Positions 3,581 through 53,382 of a stretch of 64,000 bases of DNA are shown here, in pieces. The position numbers were made by a program, and so were the translations under genes. This stretch comes from Candidatus Omnitrophota bacterium (lineage in GTDB: Bacteria; Omnitrophota; Gorgyraeia; JAFGHF01): positions 892,064 through 956,063 of the forward strand of contig CP070837.1 of NCBI GenBank assembly GCA_020341815.1, read 5' to 3'. Positions within the stretch are counted from its first letter, which is position 1. The number at the start of each line of letters is the position of its first letter. The notes below the pieces were generated by a model. The model was not told the origin of the DNA and did not search any database. It worked only from the letters and a program-made list of their open reading frames with translations.

Positions 3581-6500
3581 TGATTGATATAGTAAGTCTT
3601 ATCCTCTGTGGTTATTCTCCATACCGGGTAAAATGGTGAAGTGGTAAGCTCAGGTGAATAGACAAGCTCAGCCTTAATTTCAGCGGGCTCTTCTTCACTC
3701 TGGGCCAATACCTTCTCTATGGCTTCCTCTTTGCTAATCTGGATAAACCTTACCGGCTCATCCACCCAGGAGGCCTGTTTAAAGTAGCCCTCTTCCCTAT
3801 CAATGATTATGGCAGCATAGCTTAAGAACTGCCCCTGGAAGAAGTTGTCAAAAGGAACGAGGTAATAGTCCTTGCCTGCCTTATCCAGTCTTTGGACAGG
3901 GATAAAGCTTCTGGCAATAGAGCCCTGGATGCTTTGGGTGAACTTCTCGTCCGTAAGAAGCGAAGGGTCGATTATCTCTTTCCAGTTTATCCGGGAAGTC
4001 GCTTCGTTTTCCGGTTTGAAGATATTTAAGAGGTCTTCCTCTATGGTGTAAGAGATTAGCTCCTGCTCTTCATTAAGATTAACCACCAAGGCCCTGTCTA
4101 AAAGGTGCTTCTTGACAGGGTCGGTACTTTCTCCTGAGAGATAATCAGCTATCCTGACCAGTTCCCGGGTAGATTCATTTATTCGAGGTTCGGCTAAAGA
4201 GACCTCAGCATCACTTGGTTCAGAGGGCGGCTCAGCTACCTGAAGGTATTTGCCCTTATAATCATCTTCGGCCGTAAGAGGCAGTAGCATTGTAGCCTGG
4301 CATTCGCCAGCTGTGAGATAGTTATCCTGGCCTATGCCTTGGCCTTGCGGGTCAGTCAGCCAGAGGCCGTAGACCGTAAAGTTGCTAAGGTCTGAGAGCC
4401 GATGGTAACGGCTATGCGGCTCAAAGGGATAGGGGTTCATATCACAGGCTGCACCGTTTATCACCAGCCAGTGCCCGTATGTTCCGTAGGCAGGCACTGC
4501 AGCTGGCGTGTAGGGCTCTGCTACTAGGTCGGTTTCATCCTGGTAATTGTGCCAATCTTCCTTTGTGACAGGATAGGCTATCCAATGAGTGATGTCTCTT
4601 AGGTATTCCTTGAATTGGTCGGGTTCATACTCCTCAATGCCAAAGTTGTATCCATAGTTAGAACGACCTCCAGCTGGAGCATCACCTTCACCCAAGTTGT
4701 CATAATAATCAAAATGCCCCAAGGCATAGTCTATAGCATGAGGGTCCATTTCATCAAGGGAGGCTTTGTTGTAGGGATGGCCGTATTCATAGATCTCAAG
4801 CTGTGAGGGGGTATCATCTTCAGGACGCATCAGGTCTATAATCATCTGAGCGCTGGCTGCGCCTGATGAGGCAAAGTTATAAGGCTCAGGGAGTAACTCT
4901 TCGGCGTAATACTCAGGCAAGTCTATATGCAGAACCCAGCCTTTAAAGACTGAGATAGAGTCTTCGCCTTCGTTACCTGCTGCGTCTGTAGCAATAACCT
5001 TGACGATATTCCTCTGTCCTTCCCCTTCTATAGTTACGCCGGATGCAGAGAATGTCCCGTCACCCATATTGTCTGCCGATGAGTAATTTGTGTTAGCTCC
5101 TGTTACCTCTATTTCAACAGTTGCAGTATCATCATCTATCGTGCCTGATATGTCTATCAAGACATCATTAACTCCGGAATTATTAGCCGGATTGGTGATG
5201 GTAACCTGAGGTGCGGTCCTGTCAATGGTAAAGGAGACGCTGCCTGAGGAGCTATTGCCGGCCTCATCAGTAGCAGTTAAGGTAATAGTATAGTCTCCTT
5301 CTTCGGTATATGTATAAGTAGGAGGAAGATCATTATCACTGGTAACAACAATCTTATCCCCACTTGAACGGTCATCCTCTACTGTATAAGTTAAGGTAAC
5401 ATCCTGATTGGTCGGAGTAGATACAGGGTCAATACTGATTGTGGGTGGGGCGGTATCCGGTGAGTTCTCTAACTCCACTGTTATGCTCTGCCATGGAGAT
5501 TGATTTCCCGCTGCATCTATTGCCCGGGCTTCAAATGTTAGCGTTGAGCCGGGAGCTAAGGTGTCTGTCTGGACCAGCCCTGCCACAAAAGACCAATTGC
5601 TTATATCTTCTATGGTGACCGACACTCCTGCGTCTTCTCCATTTATCTTCGTCTCTATGGATTCCAATCCTGAATCATCTGTGGCAGTGCCGGAAAAGCT
5701 TAATGAAGTTCCTATTTGAATCTTTGCTCCGTCTTCCGGATAAGTTATAGCAACAACCGGAGGTGCGATATCTACATTGTTTACGGTTATAACGATTGTT
5801 TCCTGATTACTCCTAAGAAGTTCTTTATCGTATGCCCAGCAGGTCAATCGATAGTCTCCTCCTGCCTGGTCATATGTTGGTGTCCAACGAACAACACCTG
5901 CTTCAAACACGGCTCCTATTGGTACATCTACCCCTGCATTTTCCCATCCGTACCATACTTCCTCTCCATCGGGATCGCTGGCGGAAGGCGTAATAACTAA
6001 CTCCTGATTTTCATCTATTGTGCGATTTCCTATAGGATTTAAGATAGGCGCACGATTGACATCATTTACGGTAATCGTTACTTCTTGAGAATCAATAAAA
6101 CTGCCGTCCGAGACTGTAACTGTTACTTTATGCACTCCGGCATCATCGAATGTTGTGACATAGGTTTGCTCAATCATCCATCCAGAATAGCTATAGGTTA
6201 AAATGTCTTCTTCATCGGGGTCGGTAGCAGAAGGCGTAATAGTTATAGTCTGACCCTCAGTTACGGTTATATCGGCTATTTCATTCAGAACCGGCGGATG
6301 ATTATCGGTGAAGATAGCCTTATAATGATATCCCATATCTACCTGGTTTATATCAGGCTGAGCATTTGTACGGGTAGTATAGTTATAATTAAAGCCAAGA
6401 TTAATTGCTGCATCACTTCCTGCATCTACACAGGGTGAATATTTGTCAAGATAATATTGTCCCTGCGGTCCCTCCACAAAAAGCGGGTACATAAAGATGT

Positions 6501-15845: not shown

Positions 15846-15997
15846 AGTCAATAATGTATGATTCCCACGAGCCGATAAAGCTAGAGGCTTTATCTCACGC
15901 ACCTCCCATGCTCCGGCAGCCCAACTACCATCTCGGAGAATGCCTGTATGTTTATTTCGACAACCTTAAAGGGAGATGTTTTTTTGGCTCCCTTTTC

Positions 15998-16092
15998 TAC
16001 ACGGCGTCCTTTTCATCTACGGCATTTCTTCCGATTTAGGCTTGCGGCTTTGCGTCCCAGCCTTTCGACTGGTTTGCCTTTATCGGCTCTAT
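15998..16092 (-). ncRNA. c-di-GMP-I (GEMM) riboswitch aptamer, copy 1
   Basis: Minus-sense AAGGCAAACCAGUCGAAAGGCUGGGACGCAAAGCCGCAAGCCUAAAUCGG... This matches the GGCAAACC-P2(GNRA GAAA)-GGGACGCAAAGCC-GCCUAAA core of V. cholerae Vc2. Confidence 0.7.
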
Positions 16093-42594: not shown

Positions 42595-42623
42595 AATATA
42601 GCATAAAATAATTACTCTGTCAA
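42595..42623 (-). promoter_or_regulatory. Sigma70-like promoter (TTGACA, 17 nt spacer, TATATT) upstream of pilM
   Basis: Consensus -35 and near-consensus -10 with optimal spacing. Confidence 0.5.
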
Positions 42624-43157: not shown

Positions 43158-43202
43158 TAAGCTACTCCCCCTATCCTTTTCCCCTTATTTTATTATCTTA
43201 TT

Positions 43203-43235
43203 ATAATATAATACACGAAATTTTTCAAACGTCAA
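43203..43235 (-). promoter_or_regulatory. Promoter-like region (TTGACG...TATATT/TATAAT) for the second major-pilin paralog
   Basis: By-eye match. Spacing is ambiguous. Confidence 0.35.
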
Positions 43236-44066: not shown

Positions 44067-44143
44067 CATAGAGTGTATCACCCAATATTTCCTCTGTCAA
44101 GGACTTTTTAAGGTCGTGATCTATTATATAATTATATAATATA

Positions 44144-45337
44144 TTATAACAACCTGCTAATCGTAAGGATAGGCAGAAACATCGCCGCCACAATACCCCC
44201 TACCACTACGCCTAAAAACACAATAACTATCGGCTCGATCAGGGAGGTTAAGCTGCTAACGGCAGTATCTACCTGCTCTTCGTAAAACTCGGAAATCTTG
44301 GTCAACATCTTCTCCAATTCCCCTGTCTGCTCACCCACCCCGATCATCCGGGTAACCATCGGCGGAAAGACCCCGCTTCTGGCTAAGGGCTCGGCGATAT
44401 TTTCTCCCTCACGGATATTTGTACGCACCGCATTCACCGCCGTCTCAATCACCTTATTTCCTGATGTCCTGGCGGTAATCTCCAAAGCATTGAGAATGGG
44501 CACCCCGCTCCTGACCAGCGTGGATAAGGTGCGGGAAAACCGGGCAATAGCTACTTTTCGCAAAAGGATACCGACGACGGGTAGCCGCAACATTGTCTTA
44601 TCCAGCTGTATCCGCGCCTTTTCAGTGCGAATAATTCTTGAAAGAAGGAAGCCGAAGAAAAACAGACCTCCGAAAAGAACAGGCGCACTGCGTCGGGCGA
44701 AATTACTAACGGCGATCAGTGCCTGCGTAATCTTAGGCAACTCTCCCCCTAAGGTGTCAAATATTCCTTTAAACGTGGGCACTACTTTAAAAATCAAGAT
44801 ACCGGTAATAAGCGCTGCCATTGAAACAACCAGAGCCGGATAAATAAAGCTTGACTTTACCTTATGCACAAGCGCGCTGCTTTTCTCTAAATAGCTGGCT
44901 AATCTCTCCAGGATATCGTCGAGCGTTCCACTGGACTCACCAGCCCTGACCATATGCACAAAAAGTTCGGAAAAGATTTGCGGATGGTGCGACAAGGCCT
45001 CGGACAGGCTGCTGCCTGTCTCTATATTATCTCTCAAACTGGCAATCACTGCCCGAAAATCGGGCTTTTGAATTTGCTCAACCAAAACATCCAGAGCCTG
45101 AACCAAGGGGATACCGCTATCCACCATTGTAGCCAACTGCCGGGAAAAAATCACCAAATCATCTATCTTTACCTTTGCCTTGGAGGCCAGCTTCAAGGTT
45201 TTTGTCTCTGTCACCGAAATAACAATCAGGCCCTTTTTGCGCAGCAAATCAATCAGGGTAGCCTGATCTTTACATTGCAGGGTGGCGATAATGGTTCTTG
45301 CTCGCTGGTCTTTGGCTACATATTTGAAATTCGGCAT
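44144..45337 (-). CDS. pilC: Type IV pilus inner-membrane platform protein PilC (GspF family)
   Basis: Full-length GspF/PilC. Confidence 0.9.
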   Translation of the reverse strand: MPNFKYVAKDQRARTIIATLQCKDQATLIDLLRKKGLIVISVTETKTLKLASKAKVKIDDLVIFSRQLATMVDSGIPLVQALDVLVEQIQKPDFRAVIASLRDNIETGSSLSEALSHHPQIFSELFVHMVRAGESSGTLDDILERLASYLEKSSALVHKVKSSFIYPALVVSMAALITGILIFKVVPTFKGIFDTLGGELPKITQALIAVSNFARRSAPVLFGGLFFFGFLLSRIIRTEKARIQLDKTMLRLPVVGILLRKVAIARFSRTLSTLVRSGVPILNALEITARTSGNKVIETAVNAVRTNIREGENIAEPLARSGVFPPMVTRMIGVGEQTGELEKMLTKISEFYEEQVDTAVSSLTSLIEPIVIVFLGVVVGGIVAAMFLPILTISRLL

Positions 45338-48798: not shown

Positions 48799-49263
48799 TT
48801 ATTTATCGGCCTTTCCCTGGGTATAAATACGTTCGATCGCTTCTTTTATTTCGGTAGAGGTACCCAGAAAGACCTCTATCTTGCATTTAGTCAATGCCTC
48901 GATTTCCTTAATTGCCTCTTCATCCAGAGGATTGGCCATAACCACGGTTAAGATATCGCTCATTTTATCCACAGCTAAAACGTGATATTTACTGGCTAAA
49001 CTCTCCGGAATTAATTTTGCTACTTCAAAATCGATTTCATAATTGGCCAAAGGCAAATAAGGTAAATCGTGCTGAAGAGCCAGAATTTGAACTATATCCT
49101 CCTCCGTAACAAAACCCAGTTTTACCAAGGCCTCTCCCATGAGAATCCCTTCTTTTTTCTGAAGCTGCAAGGCCTGCTCTAACTGTTCGGGGGTAATCTT
49201 ACCCCTTTGAATCAAGAGTTGGCCTATCTGTTCTTTTGGCGTATTTTTCTTAAATGGAGTCAT
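48799..49263 (-). CDS. Standalone MshEN / T2SSE_N-domain protein (putative c-di-GMP binding)
   Basis: LEQALQLQKKEG...GEALVKLGFVTEEDI motif organisation like the PilB/MshE N-domain, with no ATPase domain. Confidence 0.65.
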   Translation of the reverse strand: MTPFKKNTPKEQIGQLLIQRGKITPEQLEQALQLQKKEGILMGEALVKLGFVTEEDIVQILALQHDLPYLPLANYEIDFEVAKLIPESLASKYHVLAVDKMSDILTVVMANPLDEEAIKEIEALTKCKIEVFLGTSTEIKEAIERIYTQGKADK

Positions 49264-49267
49264 CTTA

Positions 49268-50332
49268 TTATGCCTTTTTAAATAGCCTCTGTAAGTCCTG
49301 AACTTCTGTGGTATAGCCTAAGGCTTCCTCTTCTGTAATAATACCTCTCTGGCAAAGCTCATAAAGCGCCTGATTCATTGTGCGCATACCTTCTTTCTGC
49401 CCTGTCTGTATTGCCGAATAGACCTGATGCGCCTTTCCTTCCCGAATTAAACTGCGCACAGCATGATTGGCAGACAATACTTCCGTAGCCAGGACTCTTC
49501 CGCCTTTCTTACTGGGAATCAACTGCTGCGATAAAACACCCAGGAGAACAAAAGATAACTGCGCGCGCACCTGCTGCTGCTGGTGAGCCGGAAAGACATC
49601 CACCACCCTGTTGATTGTCTGCACGCTGTCGGAGGTATGCAGGGTAGCAAAGACCAGATGCCCTGTCTCGGCAATATTTAAAGCGGCCTGAATAGTCTCC
49701 AAGTCTCTCATTTCCCCGATAAGAATTACATTGGGGTCCTCCCTCAATATGTGCCTGAGGGCCTGGGAAAAAGAACGGGTGTCAGCCCCCACCTCCCGCT
49801 GTTCTATAACAGCCTTGATATTTTTAAAAGTGTATTCGATGGGGTCCTCAACGGTAATAATATGACAATGCCTTTCCTGATTAATCATATTTATCATCGC
49901 CGCTAAGCTTGTAGACTTTCCGCTCCCCGTTGCCCCGGTAACTAAAACCAGACCCTTGGACCTGCGGCAGAAGTCCTTAACTGCCTTCAGCGGCAAACCG
50001 CATTCATCAGGCGTCATAATCTGATAAGGAATCCTTCTTATGGCGCAGCCCACAGCCCCTCTCTGCTGATAAACATTCAGACGAAAGCGGCTTAACCCTT
50101 CGATTCCGAAGGACATATCCAATTCTAAATTTTCCTCAAATTCTTTTATCGCCTCTTTGCTCAACAGGCCGTAAGTCAATTCTTTCGCCCTTTGAGCCGT
50201 AAGGACCTTTTCTTCGGCATTAACCAGCTTGCCGTCTATGCGTAATTGGGGCGGCGCCCCGGCAGTAATATGCAAATCGGACGCCTTTTTTTCGACCATT
50301 ACCTTTAATAGCTTCTCCATAGCTTCAATCAT
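49268..50332 (-). CDS. pilT: Twitching-motility retraction ATPase PilT
   Basis: GATGSGKSTSLAAMI Walker A, PilT-length (354 aa). Confidence 0.9.
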   Translation of the reverse strand: MIEAMEKLLKVMVEKKASDLHITAGAPPQLRIDGKLVNAEEKVLTAQRAKELTYGLLSKEAIKEFEENLELDMSFGIEGLSRFRLNVYQQRGAVGCAIRRIPYQIMTPDECGLPLKAVKDFCRRSKGLVLVTGATGSGKSTSLAAMINMINQERHCHIITVEDPIEYTFKNIKAVIEQREVGADTRSFSQALRHILREDPNVILIGEMRDLETIQAALNIAETGHLVFATLHTSDSVQTINRVVDVFPAHQQQQVRAQLSFVLLGVLSQQLIPSKKGGRVLATEVLSANHAVRSLIREGKAHQVYSAIQTGQKEGMRTMNQALYELCQRGIITEEEALGYTTEVQDLQRLFKKA

Positions 50333-50344
50333 ATTCTGGCTCCT

Positions 50345-51766
50345 TTAAGAAAGGACAATTTTATTTTGTCCTCCGTTCTTGGATTTTTCGGTATAATGCA
50401 ATGCCCTGTTGATCAATTCTACCGCCGTCCTTCCGTCCACAGGAACAGCGCTGATGCCTGCACTTAACGTAAGAGAAATGCCGCCTTTAAGGGCAGCCTG
50501 CGTTAGCTTGCGTCTTTTCATCTCGCTGCATACACCTTCGGCAACATTCAATGACTGCTCTTTATTTTTCTCCGGCAGAAGCACAGCAAACTGGTGGTCG
50601 GAAAATCTGGCTGCTTTATCGATGTCTCCAGTAGCATCTTTTAAAGTCTGGGCCATTTTCTTTAAAGTGACCTCGGCTGCTTGCGCCCCCGCAACATCGC
50701 GATAGCGTTCAAAGTTAGCCACCTCAAAAATAAGAAAAGAACACGGTCTCTGGTAGGAAATCGCCCTTCTGATCTCCTCTTCTAAGCGGGTGCGTATATA
50801 GTTTTCGTTATAGAGCCCGGTAAGCTCATCGCGCACGTTTAACTCTTCTGTCTTGCGCAAAAGGATATCGTTTTCTACGGCCACAGCTACCTGTTTGGCA
50901 AAGACCCCTATCAACTCTTTCTCATCTTTGGCAAAGACAAAGTTCTCCGTGTTATTGCCCACCCCTAAAAGGCCGATGATGGTGCCAAAAGAAGTAACTG
51001 GCACAAGCAGCATATTCTTTGTTTGTAAAAGTTTTCTCAAATCTCCATCTGCGGCCTTCAGTTTATTCTGCTTATCTATAACTAAAGGCGTGGGATGGGC
51101 AAACAGCTTACCCAGGGGCCCCTGGCCGACTTTAACCTTGATGCGTCCTATCTCGGTGGCCTCTATGTTTACCTTCGCGCGCATAAGCAATTCGCCTGAT
51201 TCCTCCTCCCGAAACACAATAAAGGCACCTCCGGACTCCAGTTGAGAAAGCTTCTCTACAATTAAGCCAAAGACCTCGTCTAATTTAGCGTTGGCGGTCA
51301 TAAGGTTACCGATCTGCAATAGCGCAGAAAGGGCAAAGACCTTTTTATTGATTTCCATATTTATCTGCTTAATCTTCTCTCCGTAGGAATGAAGCTCGGA
51401 CATATTTTCCTTAAGTCTTCTGGAGAGCCGGTTTAAGGAACCGCTCAGCTCACCCACTTCATCCTCTGCCTCTATAGTTGCCTCTTCAACCAGTCTTCCT
51501 TCGGCAATCCCCTTGGCATAGGCACTGATGCTGGCAACAGGATAAACAATCTTTCTGGTCAGGTAGTAGCCCATGAGCATAAGGAAAATAGTAATGATAA
51601 AAATTAAGGAAATATTCCACAGGCTATCTATCGTAGGGAAGATATAATAGATAATCAGATAGCCGCAAACCAGCATCGGGATAACAGACATAAGAGCAAA
51701 GGCCACAACCAGCTTATGTTTTATACCCCTGCGTGTTAAGGATAGGTTTTTAAGTAGGTCTCTCAT
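50345..51766 (-). CDS. Membrane HAMP-GAF protein with a degenerate GGDEF domain (GGDEF replaced by SDHQF; likely non-catalytic)
   Basis: TM helices, HAMP, GAF, then a GGDEF-fold (DELTGLYNENY...RFSDHQFAVLLPE). Confidence 0.75.
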   Translation of the reverse strand: MRDLLKNLSLTRRGIKHKLVVAFALMSVIPMLVCGYLIIYYIFPTIDSLWNISLIFIITIFLMLMGYYLTRKIVYPVASISAYAKGIAEGRLVEEATIEAEDEVGELSGSLNRLSRRLKENMSELHSYGEKIKQINMEINKKVFALSALLQIGNLMTANAKLDEVFGLIVEKLSQLESGGAFIVFREEESGELLMRAKVNIEATEIGRIKVKVGQGPLGKLFAHPTPLVIDKQNKLKAADGDLRKLLQTKNMLLVPVTSFGTIIGLLGVGNNTENFVFAKDEKELIGVFAKQVAVAVENDILLRKTEELNVRDELTGLYNENYIRTRLEEEIRRAISYQRPCSFLIFEVANFERYRDVAGAQAAEVTLKKMAQTLKDATGDIDKAARFSDHQFAVLLPEKNKEQSLNVAEGVCSEMKRRKLTQAALKGGISLTLSAGISAVPVDGRTAVELINRALHYTEKSKNGGQNKIVLS

Positions 51767-52043
51767 TTTCCCCCTCTACTTTCTTTTGTTTTTTCATTGC
51801 CTCCATGGCCCTCTTTTCCAGCTCTTTCTTGGAATGCAGGCCTGTGCCGTCAATGCCTAATTTCCGCATTACGTTGACTATTGCCGAAATTATCTTGCTT
51901 CTTGAGAGCTTAGTCCCTGCACTAAAGAGGGCATCCTTGCCAATCTTATCCAGGAAGTCCACCTCATCCCTGGTAAGAAAGGTAATCACACGATGGGCAT
52001 TATTGCCCTGATTATCTGATTGCGTATGCGGCCTTTTGCTCAC
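51750..52043 (-). CDS. Small ribbon-helix-helix-like protein, first gene downstream of GEMM riboswitch 2
   Basis: GTG start with RBS AGAAGGAG. RVITFLTRDEVDFLDKI beta-strand/helix pattern. The longer ORF-track version would run into the riboswitch terminator. Confidence 0.5.
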   Translation of the reverse strand: MSKRPHTQSDNQGNNAHRVITFLTRDEVDFLDKIGKDALFSAGTKLSRSKIISAIVNVMRKLGIDGTGLHSKKELEKRAMEAMKKQKKVEGENERPT

Positions 52044-52060
52044 CTGGTGCTCCTTCTGGC

Positions 52061-52100
52061 AATAAAAAAGCCTTTGGCGCCTGTTACAAGCCAAAGGCCA
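52061..52100 (-). terminator. Intrinsic terminator forming the expression platform of GEMM riboswitch 2
   Basis: GGCCUUUGGC-uuguaacaggc-GCCAAAGGC followed by UUUUUUAUU, about 20 nt after the aptamer. Confidence 0.55.
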
Positions 52101-52117
52101 TAAACTCTCTTTTTATT

Positions 52118-52200
52118 CGTCTGGCAACCCAGCCATCCCTAACTCTAAGGACCTGTTGGCTTTGCGCCCCCCGACTTTCGCCGGGGTTTGCCTTTTTCAA
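52118..52200 (-). ncRNA. c-di-GMP-I (GEMM) riboswitch aptamer, copy 2
   Basis: Minus-sense GGCAAACC-CCGGC-GAAA-GUCGGGG-GGCGCAAAGCC-...-GGGUUGCC. P1 closing GGCAA/UUGCC and P2 with GNRA loop match GEMM-I. Confidence 0.7.
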
Positions 52201-52228
52201 ACGTATTTTGTTACTTTGTACAACCAGA

Positions 52229-52277
52229 AGTATAGCACAAAAAGCAGCATTTGTCAACTTGACAAATGTGCTTTTTT
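52229..52277 (-). promoter_or_regulatory. Promoter (TTGACA, 17 nt spacer, TATACT) overlapped by a 10 bp perfect palindrome CATTTGTCAA-G-TTGACAAATG; also a rodA terminator-like hairpin
   Basis: The -35 hexamer lies inside the palindrome. A-run and T-run flanks give it terminator character for rodA. Confidence 0.5.
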
Positions 52278-53382
52278 ACCTCCTCATCCCCACGTTCAGG
52301 ACCAGGGCTACGGCAACCATGGTGCTGACCAAAGAGGACCCCCCATAGCTTATCAGGGGAAGCGGCAGCCCCACCACAGGCAGCAGGCCCATGGTCATAG
52401 CAATATTTATCACGACCTGGAAAGAAAGCAGGGCAATTATGCCGTAGACGAGCAGTCTTCCCGATGAGTTTAAGGTCTGCTGGATGCAGGAAAAAGCCCG
52501 CCAGATTAAGGCAAAATACAGGGCCAGGAGCAAGGTAGCCCCCAAAAAGCCCCATTCCTCACCCACTACCGAAAAGATAAAGTCTGTGTGGCGTTCAGGC
52601 AGGAAATTCAGCTGGTTTTGCGTGCCGGCTAACCAGCCCTTCCCAAGCAGGCCCCCCGAACCAATGGCAATTTTAGACTGAATTACGGTATATCCTGCGC
52701 CCAAAGGGTCCATATTGGGGTTAATAAATACCAGTATTCTCCTCTTTTGGTAGTCCTTGAGCAGCTGCCACAAGAAAGGTGTGGTTAGTCCGAAACCCAG
52801 AAAGATTAAGATTAAGGTCCGCAGACGCGCCCCCCACCCATAAAGCACGCCGAAAAGAATGGGAACCAAAATCAGGGCAGTGCCCAAATCCGGCTGCTTA
52901 ACAATTAAAAGAAAGGGCAGGCCGATTATTAAAAAAGAGGCTATCAGGTCCTTTGCAGAAACATTCTCTTTTTGCCCCAGATACCGCGCCAGGGTCAAAA
53001 TAATCACAAGTTTGCTGAATTCCGAAGGCTGAAAGGCTATGCCGCCAAAAGTAATCCACCTTTGAGCGCCTAACCTGGTAGCCCCTGAAACCAAGACAAA
53101 AAGTAAAAGAATAAAATTTATTGCGTATAAGGGATAGGCCAGCTCCAGCCATTTTTGATACTCTACCTTAAGGACAACTACTCCAATTAAAAGAGCCAGC
53201 ATAAACCAGACAATCTGCCTCAGAAGAAAACTCTGCGGTAAGCTTCCACTATACTTATAAGCATGATGGTAAGTTGCACTATAGAGAAAGGTAAGTCCTA
53301 TAGCAAAGATAATAAGCACTATAAAAAGCAATGCAAAATCGAAGTTTCTTAATCTATTGTAGCTGAGCATAAAAATCCACAA
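52276..53382 (-). CDS. rodA: Rod shape-determining protein RodA (SEDS family)
   Basis: FtsW/RodA fold, adjacent to mrdA. Confidence 0.9.
   Translation of the reverse strand: MWIFMLSYNRLRNFDFALLFIVLIIFAIGLTFLYSATYHHAYKYSGSLPQSFLLRQIVWFMLALLIGVVVLKVEYQKWLELAYPLYAINFILLLFVLVSGATRLGAQRWITFGGIAFQPSEFSKLVIILTLARYLGQKENVSAKDLIASFLIIGLPFLLIVKQPDLGTALILVPILFGVLYGWGARLRTLILIFLGFGLTTPFLWQLLKDYQKRRILVFINPNMDPLGAGYTVIQSKIAIGSGGLLGKGWLAGTQNQLNFLPERHTDFIFSVVGEEWGFLGATLLLALYFALIWRAFSCIQQTLNSSGRLLVYGIIALLSFQVVINIAMTMGLLPVVGLPLPLISYGGSSLVSTMVAVALVLNVGMRR

Follow-up and report, generated by a model that had tools for sequence, protein, structure and literature searches.

Is the type IV pilus motor of an Omnitrophota bacterium governed by a riboswitch that senses cyclic di-GMP (c-di-GMP) and, if so, in which direction? 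The question is raised by a leader RNA encoded on the minus strand of a 64-kb stretch of DNA from a Candidatus Omnitrophota metagenome-assembled genome, which was analyzed as a whole and is called the window here; coordinates given without a locus label refer to it. The leader precedes the gene of a small protein, behind which follow genes for the ATPases and the platform protein of a type IV pilus. Omnitrophota are uncultured and mostly ultra-small, and they are believed to attach to host cells by means of type IVa pili (PMC10066038). A literature search found no paper on riboswitches or on c-di-GMP control of pili in Omnitrophota. An earlier reading of the DNA letters alone, hereafter the sequence-only reading, had proposed that a class I c-di-GMP riboswitch with its own terminator directly controls the whole extension and retraction machinery. 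The analysis presented here indicates that the RNA is almost certainly a real c-di-GMP-I aptamer and that it probably belongs to a functional class I riboswitch acting by transcription attenuation; somewhat more cautiously, we favor the OFF sign, under which high c-di-GMP would terminate transcription.

The identity of the aptamer is carried by covariance models and by the conserved core. A search with Rfam cmscan, which covered the whole window, matched RF01051 at 52202..52120 of the minus strand over the full model (1-87), at 59.7 bits, where the gathering score is 35, and with an E value of 3.7e-09. Our own covariance model, built from 33 of the aptamers at related loci, scores the window aptamer at 68.8 bits. 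The sequence-only reading had named the RF01051 search and had quoted the core string GGCAAACC-CCGGC-GAAA-GUCGGGG-GGCGCAAAGCC...GGGUUGCC; the match is significant, the core reads as quoted, and the class assignment holds. In an alignment to the model consensus, the positions of the ligand contacts G20, A47 and C92 are occupied by G, A and C in the window RNA, where the transfer of Vc2 numbering to model columns is partly an assumption based on the Vc2 structure. The A and C columns are invariant among 33 relatives, with conservation of at least 90% in the G column. The first hairpin carries a GNRA loop (GAAA), which in this class docks into a receptor in the second hairpin; a near-receptor motif, CCUUAG...GAUGG, was seen by eye only.

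The literature treats position 20 as a selectivity determinant between cyclic dinucleotides. Because the string CGCAAAG is kept and the G20-equivalent is a G, the RNA is filed as canonical c-di-GMP-I, with c-di-GMP as its predicted ligand. Two variant classes were considered for it and set aside. The c-di-GMP-I-GGC variant (RF03167) has the consensus CGCGAAG, with G for A47, where the window and all aligned relatives have CGCAAAG; the GEMM-Ib type, which senses 3'3'-cyclic GMP-AMP (3'3'-cGAMP), has A at position 20, where the window has G52192.

Comparative evidence points the same way. One genome per GTDB species was scanned for related loci, which gave 80 of them (labeled in the style L001). 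In a set of 77 distinct homologous sequences, 95.5% of the cells at paired positions were paired, as compared to 27-42% when the 3' partners were slid along the alignment. Compensatory changes occurred in 18 of the 21 pairs, and none of 500 shuffles attained the observed values. The innermost variable pair of helix P1 covaries as well (U-A in 24 sequences, C-G in 6), so that the covariation for which the sequence-only reading had suggested looking is present in P1 and across most of the fold.

The aptamer is flanked by the two other elements of an attenuator. The promoter upstream, predicted earlier as TTGACA-17-TATACT, was found in the expected place; it matches 11 of 12 consensus positions, is the sole promoter-like site in 51000-53000, and would start transcription at about 52222-52221. 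Our promoter scan recognizes sigma-70 consensus sites only. The site is kept as cTTGACA-17-TGTGCTATACT in L001, L002, L004, L006 and L008, and as TTGAAA-17-TGTGTTATACT in L007. The intrinsic terminator, which had been expected about 20 nucleotides (nt) behind the aptamer, was likewise recovered, its stem beginning 18 nt past the end of P1. The stem has 10 base pairs (bp), the GCCAAAGGC arm being completed by the first U, and the hairpin has a predicted free energy of -16.3 kcal/mol. A consensus terminator scanner missed this hairpin, the loop limit of the scanner being 8 nt. An A-run just upstream (52117-52110) can pair with the U-run.

A survey of 72 related leaders, which like all the leaders in our family-wide comparisons are phylogenetically related, found a hairpin followed by a U-run after the aptamer in 70, with sequences that differ between lineages and with a median start 9 nt past the end of the model match. 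Two or three terminators stand in tandem in 28 of the 72, for example in L016, L022, L044, L054 and L056. Judged by the presence of such hairpins, the terminator is as conserved as the aptamer, though its sequence varies by lineage, and the riboswitch probably acts through it. One close relative, L002, whose small protein is 70% identical, shares the TTGACA-17-TGTGCTATACT promoter, and the leader behind it is short and plain and contains neither aptamer nor terminator (L002:3860-4003), which suggests that the riboswitch was cleanly lost there or never gained.

The direction of control depends on how the two structures communicate. Aptamer and terminator share no nucleotide, and both can form together. 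Two arrangements have been described: in the ON switch upstream of pilM, aptamer and terminator are mutually exclusive, and in the OFF switch Cd1 they can form side by side, and an antiterminator competes with them (PMC9262584). An antiterminator is predicted for the window leader too. It is the minimum-free-energy fold for transcripts ending at 52085-52073, and for the transcript ending at 52073 it reaches -47.8 kcal/mol versus -36.9 kcal/mol for the native-like aptamer fold. The antiterminator strand GGCGC-A-AAGCCAA-C-AGG-U-CC (52168-52149) would also pair with the first five bases of the terminator 3' arm. Folding of growing transcripts from L001, L003, L004 and L007 gave the same transient loss and subsequent recovery of the aptamer fold. 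The pairing was also compared by eye in the eight closest loci. L001 has a G-to-A change in the aptamer and a C-to-U change in the terminator, L004 and L005 have exact complements of 8 and 9 nt, and L006 and L008 do not fit; this comparison is not counted as support. The non-overlap of aptamer and terminator, together with pairings that are incompatible with the ligand-bound core, leads us to infer an OFF switch.

Across the family, the complementarity of the platform to the aptamer peaks at the G20 junction (AAAGGCAAAC) and at the GGGGCGCAAAG segment, and a survey of 57 leaders found the exact complement of GGCAAAC in 11, against 0.95 expected. The classical form of antiterminator, in which the P1 3' strand pairs with the terminator 5' arm, was tried and rejected, its complementarity being nowhere in the family above that of shuffled controls. 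Two further patterns were seen at these loci. Where the pilus operon is absent, GUUUGCC, the exact complement of GGCAAAC, often lies in the loop or the 3' arm of a tandem terminator. In L018, L024, L028, L033, L037, L039, L042, L048 and L068, a large loop of the first terminator holds, by eye, 6-9 nt that are complementary to the P1 5' strand, as with UCACUGGUA versus UACCAGUGA in L068.

The following course of events is proposed. RNA polymerase would start near 52222, transcribe the aptamer (52203-52118) and then meet the terminator (52099-52061). When no c-di-GMP is present, the terminator 5' arm and loop would pair with the aptamer junction and the 5' strand of the distal helix, and this antiterminator would allow read-through into an mRNA for the 97-amino-acid (aa) protein and, most likely, for the sensor with the degenerate GGDEF domain, PilT, the standalone MshEN protein, both PilB proteins and PilC. 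When c-di-GMP is bound, the aptamer core would be locked, the terminator hairpin would form, and a leader RNA of ~160 nt would be released. High c-di-GMP would in this way lower the synthesis of the small protein and of the pilus motor. The elements of the leader and the genes behind it are listed in Table 1.

Table 1. Elements of the riboswitch leader and genes of the downstream block, with positions in the window
Feature	Position	Strand	Detail or evidence
Palindrome CATTTGTCAAgTTGACAAATG	52248..52268	-	Perfect 10+10; directly after the rodA stop (52278-52276); overlaps the -35; short T run follows
Sigma-70-type promoter	52229..52257	-	-35 TTGACA 52257-52252; 17-nt spacer; TG 52237-52236; -10 TATACT 52234-52229
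5' leader hairpin, predicted	52198..52218	-	CAAA/GUA with UAC/UUUG; minimum-free-energy folds
c-di-GMP-I (GEMM-I) aptamer	52118..52203	-	Rfam RF01051, own covariance model, covariation
P1, 6 bp	52203-52198 with 52123-52118	-	CGUUUG with CAGACG
G20-, A47- and C92-equivalents	52192, 52163, 52124	-	G, A and C; alignment to RF01051 consensus
GC:GC pairs	52191-52190 with 52165-52164	-	
First hairpin	52186-52169	-	CCCCGGC-GAAA-GUCGGGG; GAAA tetraloop at 52179-52176
Distal helix of aptamer	52161-52126	-	
Antiterminator pairing, predicted	52076..52168	-	Aptamer side: core, 5' strand of distal helix; terminator side: 5' arm, loop, first part of 3' arm
Antiterminator segment	52168-52164 with 52080-52076	-	GGCGC with GCGCC
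Antiterminator segment	52162-52156 with 52094-52088	-	AAGCCAA with UUGGCUU
Antiterminator segment	52154-52152 with 52097-52095	-	AGG with CCU
Antiterminator segment	52150-52149 with 52099-52098	-	CC with GG
Intrinsic terminator	52061..52099	-	Stem GGCCUUUGGC 52099-52090 with GCCAAAGGC 52078-52070; 11-nt loop; U-run UUUUUUAUU 52069-52061
Small gene with Shine-Dalgarno sequence	51750..52056	-	GAAGGAG 52056-52050; GTG 52043 to stop 51750; 97 aa
HAMP-GAF-GGDEF protein	50345..51766	-	473 aa; Pfam (GGDEF 3.8e-28)
PilT-type retraction ATPase	49268..50332	-	354 aa; T2SSE 1.1e-44, no MshEN domain
Standalone MshEN-domain protein	48799..49263	-	154 aa; Pfam MshEN 8.7e-19
PilB-type extension ATPase, paralogue 1	48794-47073	-	573 aa; MshEN and T2SSE
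PilB-type extension ATPase, paralogue 2	47055-45358	-	565 aa; MshEN and T2SSE
PilC platform protein, last gene of block	44144..45337	-	397 aa; T2SSF

Among the closest known systems is the OFF switch Cd1, a class I c-di-GMP riboswitch that precedes flgB in Clostridioides difficile (PMC9262584, PMC6366702). Like Cd1, the window element combines an RF01051 aptamer with a non-overlapping intrinsic terminator, and in both cases a long operon follows whose products serve motility or form a surface organelle. In contrast to Cd1, which precedes flagellar genes, it stands before pilus motor genes, and its direction is predicted. The two also differ in the antiterminator, which would use the central junction and the 5' strand of the distal helix in the window leader, and uses the aptamer 3' strand in Cd1.

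How far such control might extend is suggested by the arrangement of the genes. Pfam agrees with the order that the sequence-only reading had given, namely HAMP-GAF-GGDEF, PilT, MshEN-only, two PilB and PilC. From the small gene to pilC, the seven genes are separated by -17, 12, 4, 4, 17 and 20 nt, the negative value being the overlap of the GGDEF protein start with the end of the small gene. On the minus strand from 52043 to 44144, no promoter-like site of at least 10/12 and no convincing terminator within the block were found. By this spacing, the seven genes are quite probably co-transcribed. The upstream neighbors of the riboswitch are mreB, mreC, mreD, PBP2 and rodA, and two pilins and PilM are encoded further downstream of PilC. 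A gap of 222 nt, which holds a promoter-like site at 44100-44072, separates pilC from the first pilin gene. Strong promoter-like sites matching 10/12 or 11/12 positions, two of them with an upstream TG, lie at 44072-44100, 43200-43228 and 42595-42623 of the minus strand, in this order one before each of the two pilin genes and one before pilM, which suggests that these three genes form transcription units of their own, apart from the motor block. The claim that the whole machinery is under riboswitch control thus goes too far, the block comprising the motor ATPases and PilC.

The related loci place the pilus operon in a wider setting. Among the first 18 loci, Rfam reported a match of the GEMM-I clan shortly before the small gene in 14, and our own model placed an aptamer closely in front of the small-gene homologue, in the same orientation, in 75 of the 80. 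Outside these 75, aptamers with large insertions were recognized by eye in L040 and L079; as for the remaining loci, the aptamer is missing and the promoter kept in L002, L067 lies at a contig end, and L029 is ambiguous. Downstream contexts were determined by tblastn with the proteins of the window. In about 24 loci, which include the eight closest relatives and several distant ones, the order is rodA, aptamer, small gene, (GGDEF), pilT, MshEN, pilB, pilB. The other ~55 have the aptamer and the small gene in different settings. In 24 of these, the small gene is followed by a gene for a signal-peptide protein of ~100 aa with the motif SC(S/T)(I/V)PAIPGVNAP and then by a convergent gene; in 6, the next gene encodes a small membrane protein starting (P)LEYGDNFPVP, with CvpA and DnaG further downstream in several. 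Neither of these protein families had a Pfam match where tested. Judged by these gene orders, the unit conserved at the level of the phylum is the riboswitch with the small protein, behind which the pilus motor operon stands as one gene set among several.

These data also admit a broader and more tentative reading, which we consider possible though doubtful: the GEMM-I RNA and the ~90-aa protein may constitute a phylum-specific cassette, in which the small protein is the primary c-di-GMP output and a regulator of a new kind, itself under riboswitch control and placed before varied surface operons, with an unusual antiterminator. The pilus motor would stand behind the cassette in some lineages, and secreted or small membrane proteins in others. 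The apex of the terminator hairpin would complement the ligand-binding junctions, as in GUUUGCC versus GGCAAAC, in GGCUUUGCG versus CGCAAAGCC, and in the loop complements of the P1 5' strand.

Some variation among the related loci was noted in passing. Genes that follow the small gene where the pilus operon is absent are exemplified by L016:4363-4680, L021:4313-4612 and L030:4259-4573. L043 has two GEMM-I aptamers in tandem before the small gene (3695-3773 and 3780-3860). Insertions of tens to more than 100 nt occur in the first or the distal hairpin of L008, L010, L011, L036, L040, L047 and L079, with the core strings kept. L057 (3787-3873) has A at the G20-equivalent (AGCAAAC), uniquely among the aligned relatives; in GEMM-Ib this change is tied to cGAMP-type selectivity.

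Several observations weigh against a functional attenuator that controls the motor block. The full-length RNA favors the terminator fold over the antiterminator by 5 kcal/mol, and any regulation must therefore be kinetic. A stable local hairpin would have to open before its 5' strand could enter the antiterminator. In family-wide co-transcriptional folding, the mean minimum aptamer retention was 0.49 for real and 0.50 for shuffled platforms, and the thermodynamic support for an antiterminator is thus limited to the window leader and its close relatives. The positions of the tetraloop receptor are gapped in the Rfam alignment, and co-transcription of the seven genes is deduced from spacing only. 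Finally, the class I aptamer of Bc1, which is followed by strong terminators, is unresponsive to c-di-GMP in vivo (PMC11218506).

The opposite sign was weighed first. In an ON switch, c-di-GMP would favor read-through and raise the synthesis of the pilus motor, as at C. difficile pilA1 and Geobacter pilM, and both of these precedents for a cyclic-dinucleotide riboswitch before type IV pilus genes are indeed ON (PMC6366702; PMC9262584). An ON switch would also be an attractively coherent design alongside MshEN proteins activated by c-di-GMP, and the terminator fold is the thermodynamic ground state of the ligand-free RNA. We nevertheless regard it as rather unlikely, given that P1 ends at 52118 and the terminator stem starts at 52099, so that a bound aptamer cannot sequester the terminator; the same non-overlapping layout is found in 70 of the 72 leaders, and every complementarity found between platform and aptamer excludes the ligand-bound fold.

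The precedents themselves differ from the window element in several respects. Cdi-2-4 is a class II c-di-GMP riboswitch before C. difficile pilA1 and acts as an ON switch (Bordeleau et al. 2015, summarised in PMC6366702). It shares with the window element a c-di-GMP ligand, control by transcription termination (a predicted mechanism here) and a position before type IV pilus genes. Unlike the window element, it belongs to the c-di-GMP-II class and acts directly on the major pilin, and transcription reads through into the pilB operon only to some extent, whereas promoter-like sites precede the pilin genes of the window and the genes under putative control encode the motor ATPases and PilC. The riboswitch before pilM in Geobacter metallireducens is a GEMM-Ib sensor of 3'3'-cGAMP and also ON (PMC9262584). 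The GEMM-I fold, transcriptional control (predicted for the window element) and a place before a polycistronic pilus cluster are common to both. The window RNA differs in its G at position 20 and in its separate aptamer and terminator, as opposed to the cGAMP ligand, ON sign and mutually exclusive structures of pilM.

An OFF switch might also control less than the block. The riboswitch could govern the small protein only, with the motor genes expressed mainly from unrecognized internal promoters, in which case the link to pili would be one of adjacency. The aptamer does travel with the small gene in the 75 loci described above, most of which have no pilus genes behind it, some pilus-linked loci have 80-200 nt between the small gene and pilT, and a scan restricted to sigma-70 consensus sites would see no others. 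We consider this improbable in view of the 17-nt overlap with the next gene, of the other gaps in the window, none above 20 nt, of the absence of any site of at least 10/12 between 52043 and 44144, and of a gene order kept in ~24 species.

A constitutive terminator is very improbable. The locus would then yield a short c-di-GMP-binding leader RNA, acting as a sponge or as a trans-acting small RNA, and the downstream genes would be expressed by leakage. The strength of the hairpin, the two or three terminators in a row in 28 of the 72 relatives, the unresponsiveness of Bc1, and a second window aptamer (16088-15912) that is followed by a terminator and then by a separate promoter-like site could be taken in this sense. 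Such an RNA would not, however, account for an aptamer that always lies on the same strand immediately 5' of the small gene, or for a Shine-Dalgarno sequence and start codon within ~40-200 nt in most leaders. Furthermore, no separate promoter is seen between terminator and start codon in the window, and in the aptamer-less L002 the same promoter drives the gene directly. Bc1 itself, a class I riboswitch of Bacillus thuringiensis with a dual terminator (PMC11218506), resembles the Omnitrophota leaders in its class I aptamer and long platform and, in 28 of the 72 relatives, in two tandem rho-independent terminators; it is unlike the window leader, which has a single one.

That the ligand is a different one, such as 3'3'-cGAMP (GEMM-Ib) or the ligand of the Rfam GGC variant class, is scarcely credible, since the several relatives that score best against RF03167 do so by overall similarity only and the A of L057 is matched in the window by the c-di-GMP-type G at position 20, the window RNA itself scoring best against RF01051 and sharing CGCAAAG, rather than the CGCGAAG of RF03167, with all aligned relatives.

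The reading frame of the small protein had been listed as a 114-aa open reading frame whose TTG (52094) falls within the terminator 5' arm, and the sequence-only reading had moved the start to GTG 52043. The NCBI protein of the source Candidatus Omnitrophota genome is the 97-aa GTG product, with 100% identity and coverage, and the start codon is therefore settled at GTG 52043, 6 nt behind the Shine-Dalgarno sequence. The protein has 186 homologues, whose named sources are all Omnitrophota, and is without a Pfam domain; residues R18, V19, L23, R25, D29, D32, K36-S41, K45, S47 and R48 are invariant in the family. No membrane segment is predicted, and the 64-kb window contains no second copy of the gene.

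A ribbon-helix-helix (RHH) fold had been suggested for this protein; the idea, which depends on the pattern RVITFL-TRDEVDFLDKIGK...KLSRSKIISAIV, found no support. Pfam gave no family for any of 44 members at E values up to 5, and a profile search of the PDB gave no sequence relative. An AlphaFold2 model of the monomer has three helices, no strand and a disordered N-terminus, with a confidence score (pLDDT) of 67.6, and Foldseek matched it to nothing in the PDB at E below 0.8. In an hhalign comparison with CopG, the expected register was aligned at a non-significant probability of 0.13%. The RHH strand forms only in the dimer, and we retain the label as a lead only. Another family of small proteins is known whose genes likewise stand directly behind c-di-GMP riboswitches. 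That family is membrane-associated and linked to sporulation, whereas no membrane segment is predicted in the Omnitrophota protein, whose context is also unrelated.

The second gene of the motor block had been read as encoding a degenerate GGDEF protein, and its motifs bear this out: the domain fold is present, the active site reads SDHQF (residues 389-393) for GGDEF, and the I-site RxxD has become GDID (380-383). By these motifs, the protein is without an active diguanylate cyclase site. PilT is 58-85% identical to its orthologues at the same position in related loci, and the two PilB paralogues are 52% identical to each other.

The sequence-only reading had also counted MshEN proteins of the operon as c-di-GMP receptors. 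Pfam does place an MshEN domain in three proteins. The c-di-GMP motif of this domain consists of two tandem 24-residue units, RLGxx(L/V/I)(L/V/I)xxG(L/V/I)(L/V/I)xxxxLxxxLxxQ, with a 5-residue spacer (PMC5013675), and it is intact in none of the three: neither a strict nor a relaxed regular expression of the 24-residue motif matched in the standalone protein or in either PilB. The standalone protein has tandem near-matches at residues 12-35 (9/11) and 41-64 (10/11) with the correct 5-residue spacer, both lacking the leading Arg or Lys, and the PilB N-termini are more degenerate. The MshEN domains thus stand and the receptor function does not follow from the motif, though c-di-GMP binding by the standalone protein is possible from its near-matches.

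Riboswitches for cyclic dinucleotides before pilus genes, class I OFF switches with terminators (Cd1) and dual terminators (Bc1) are already known, and the locus adds little that is new to riboswitch biology in principle. Two of its points are of moderate interest, the phylum-wide coupling to an uncharacterized small protein and a sign that is probably opposite to that of other pilus riboswitches. If the OFF sign is true, synthesis of the pilus motor would fall at high c-di-GMP, the reverse of what the pilus riboswitch of C. difficile does. Because the aptamer and the small protein are coupled almost universally, the latter probably takes part in the c-di-GMP network of the phylum. The riboswitch also offers a directly testable handle on an uncultured organism, for the RNA can be made in vitro and the terminated leader can be searched for in metatranscriptomes.

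Two minor features of the leader region deserve mention. The palindrome that overlaps the -35 may serve as a weak terminator of rodA, as an operator, or as both; only its inner core, TGTCAAnTTGACA, is partly conserved in relatives. The hairpin predicted at the 5' end of the leader, which is weakly conserved in relatives, would sequester the P1 5' strand when the aptamer is open.

The second aptamer of the window, also c-di-GMP-I, lies at 15912-16088 of the minus strand. It scores 69.8 bits against RF01051, has a 93-nt insertion in the distal hairpin, and stands between a gene for an IMPDH/GMP-reductase-like protein (17294-16134) and one for a CobA/BtuR adenosyltransferase (15740-15231). It is followed by a hairpin with a U-run (~15843-15803) and then, as read by eye, by TTGACA (15804-15799), 17 nt and TATGAT (15781-15776). 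Four PilZ-domain genes are located downstream of it, at 14097-13702, 11802-11449, 10988-10485 and 10138-9776.

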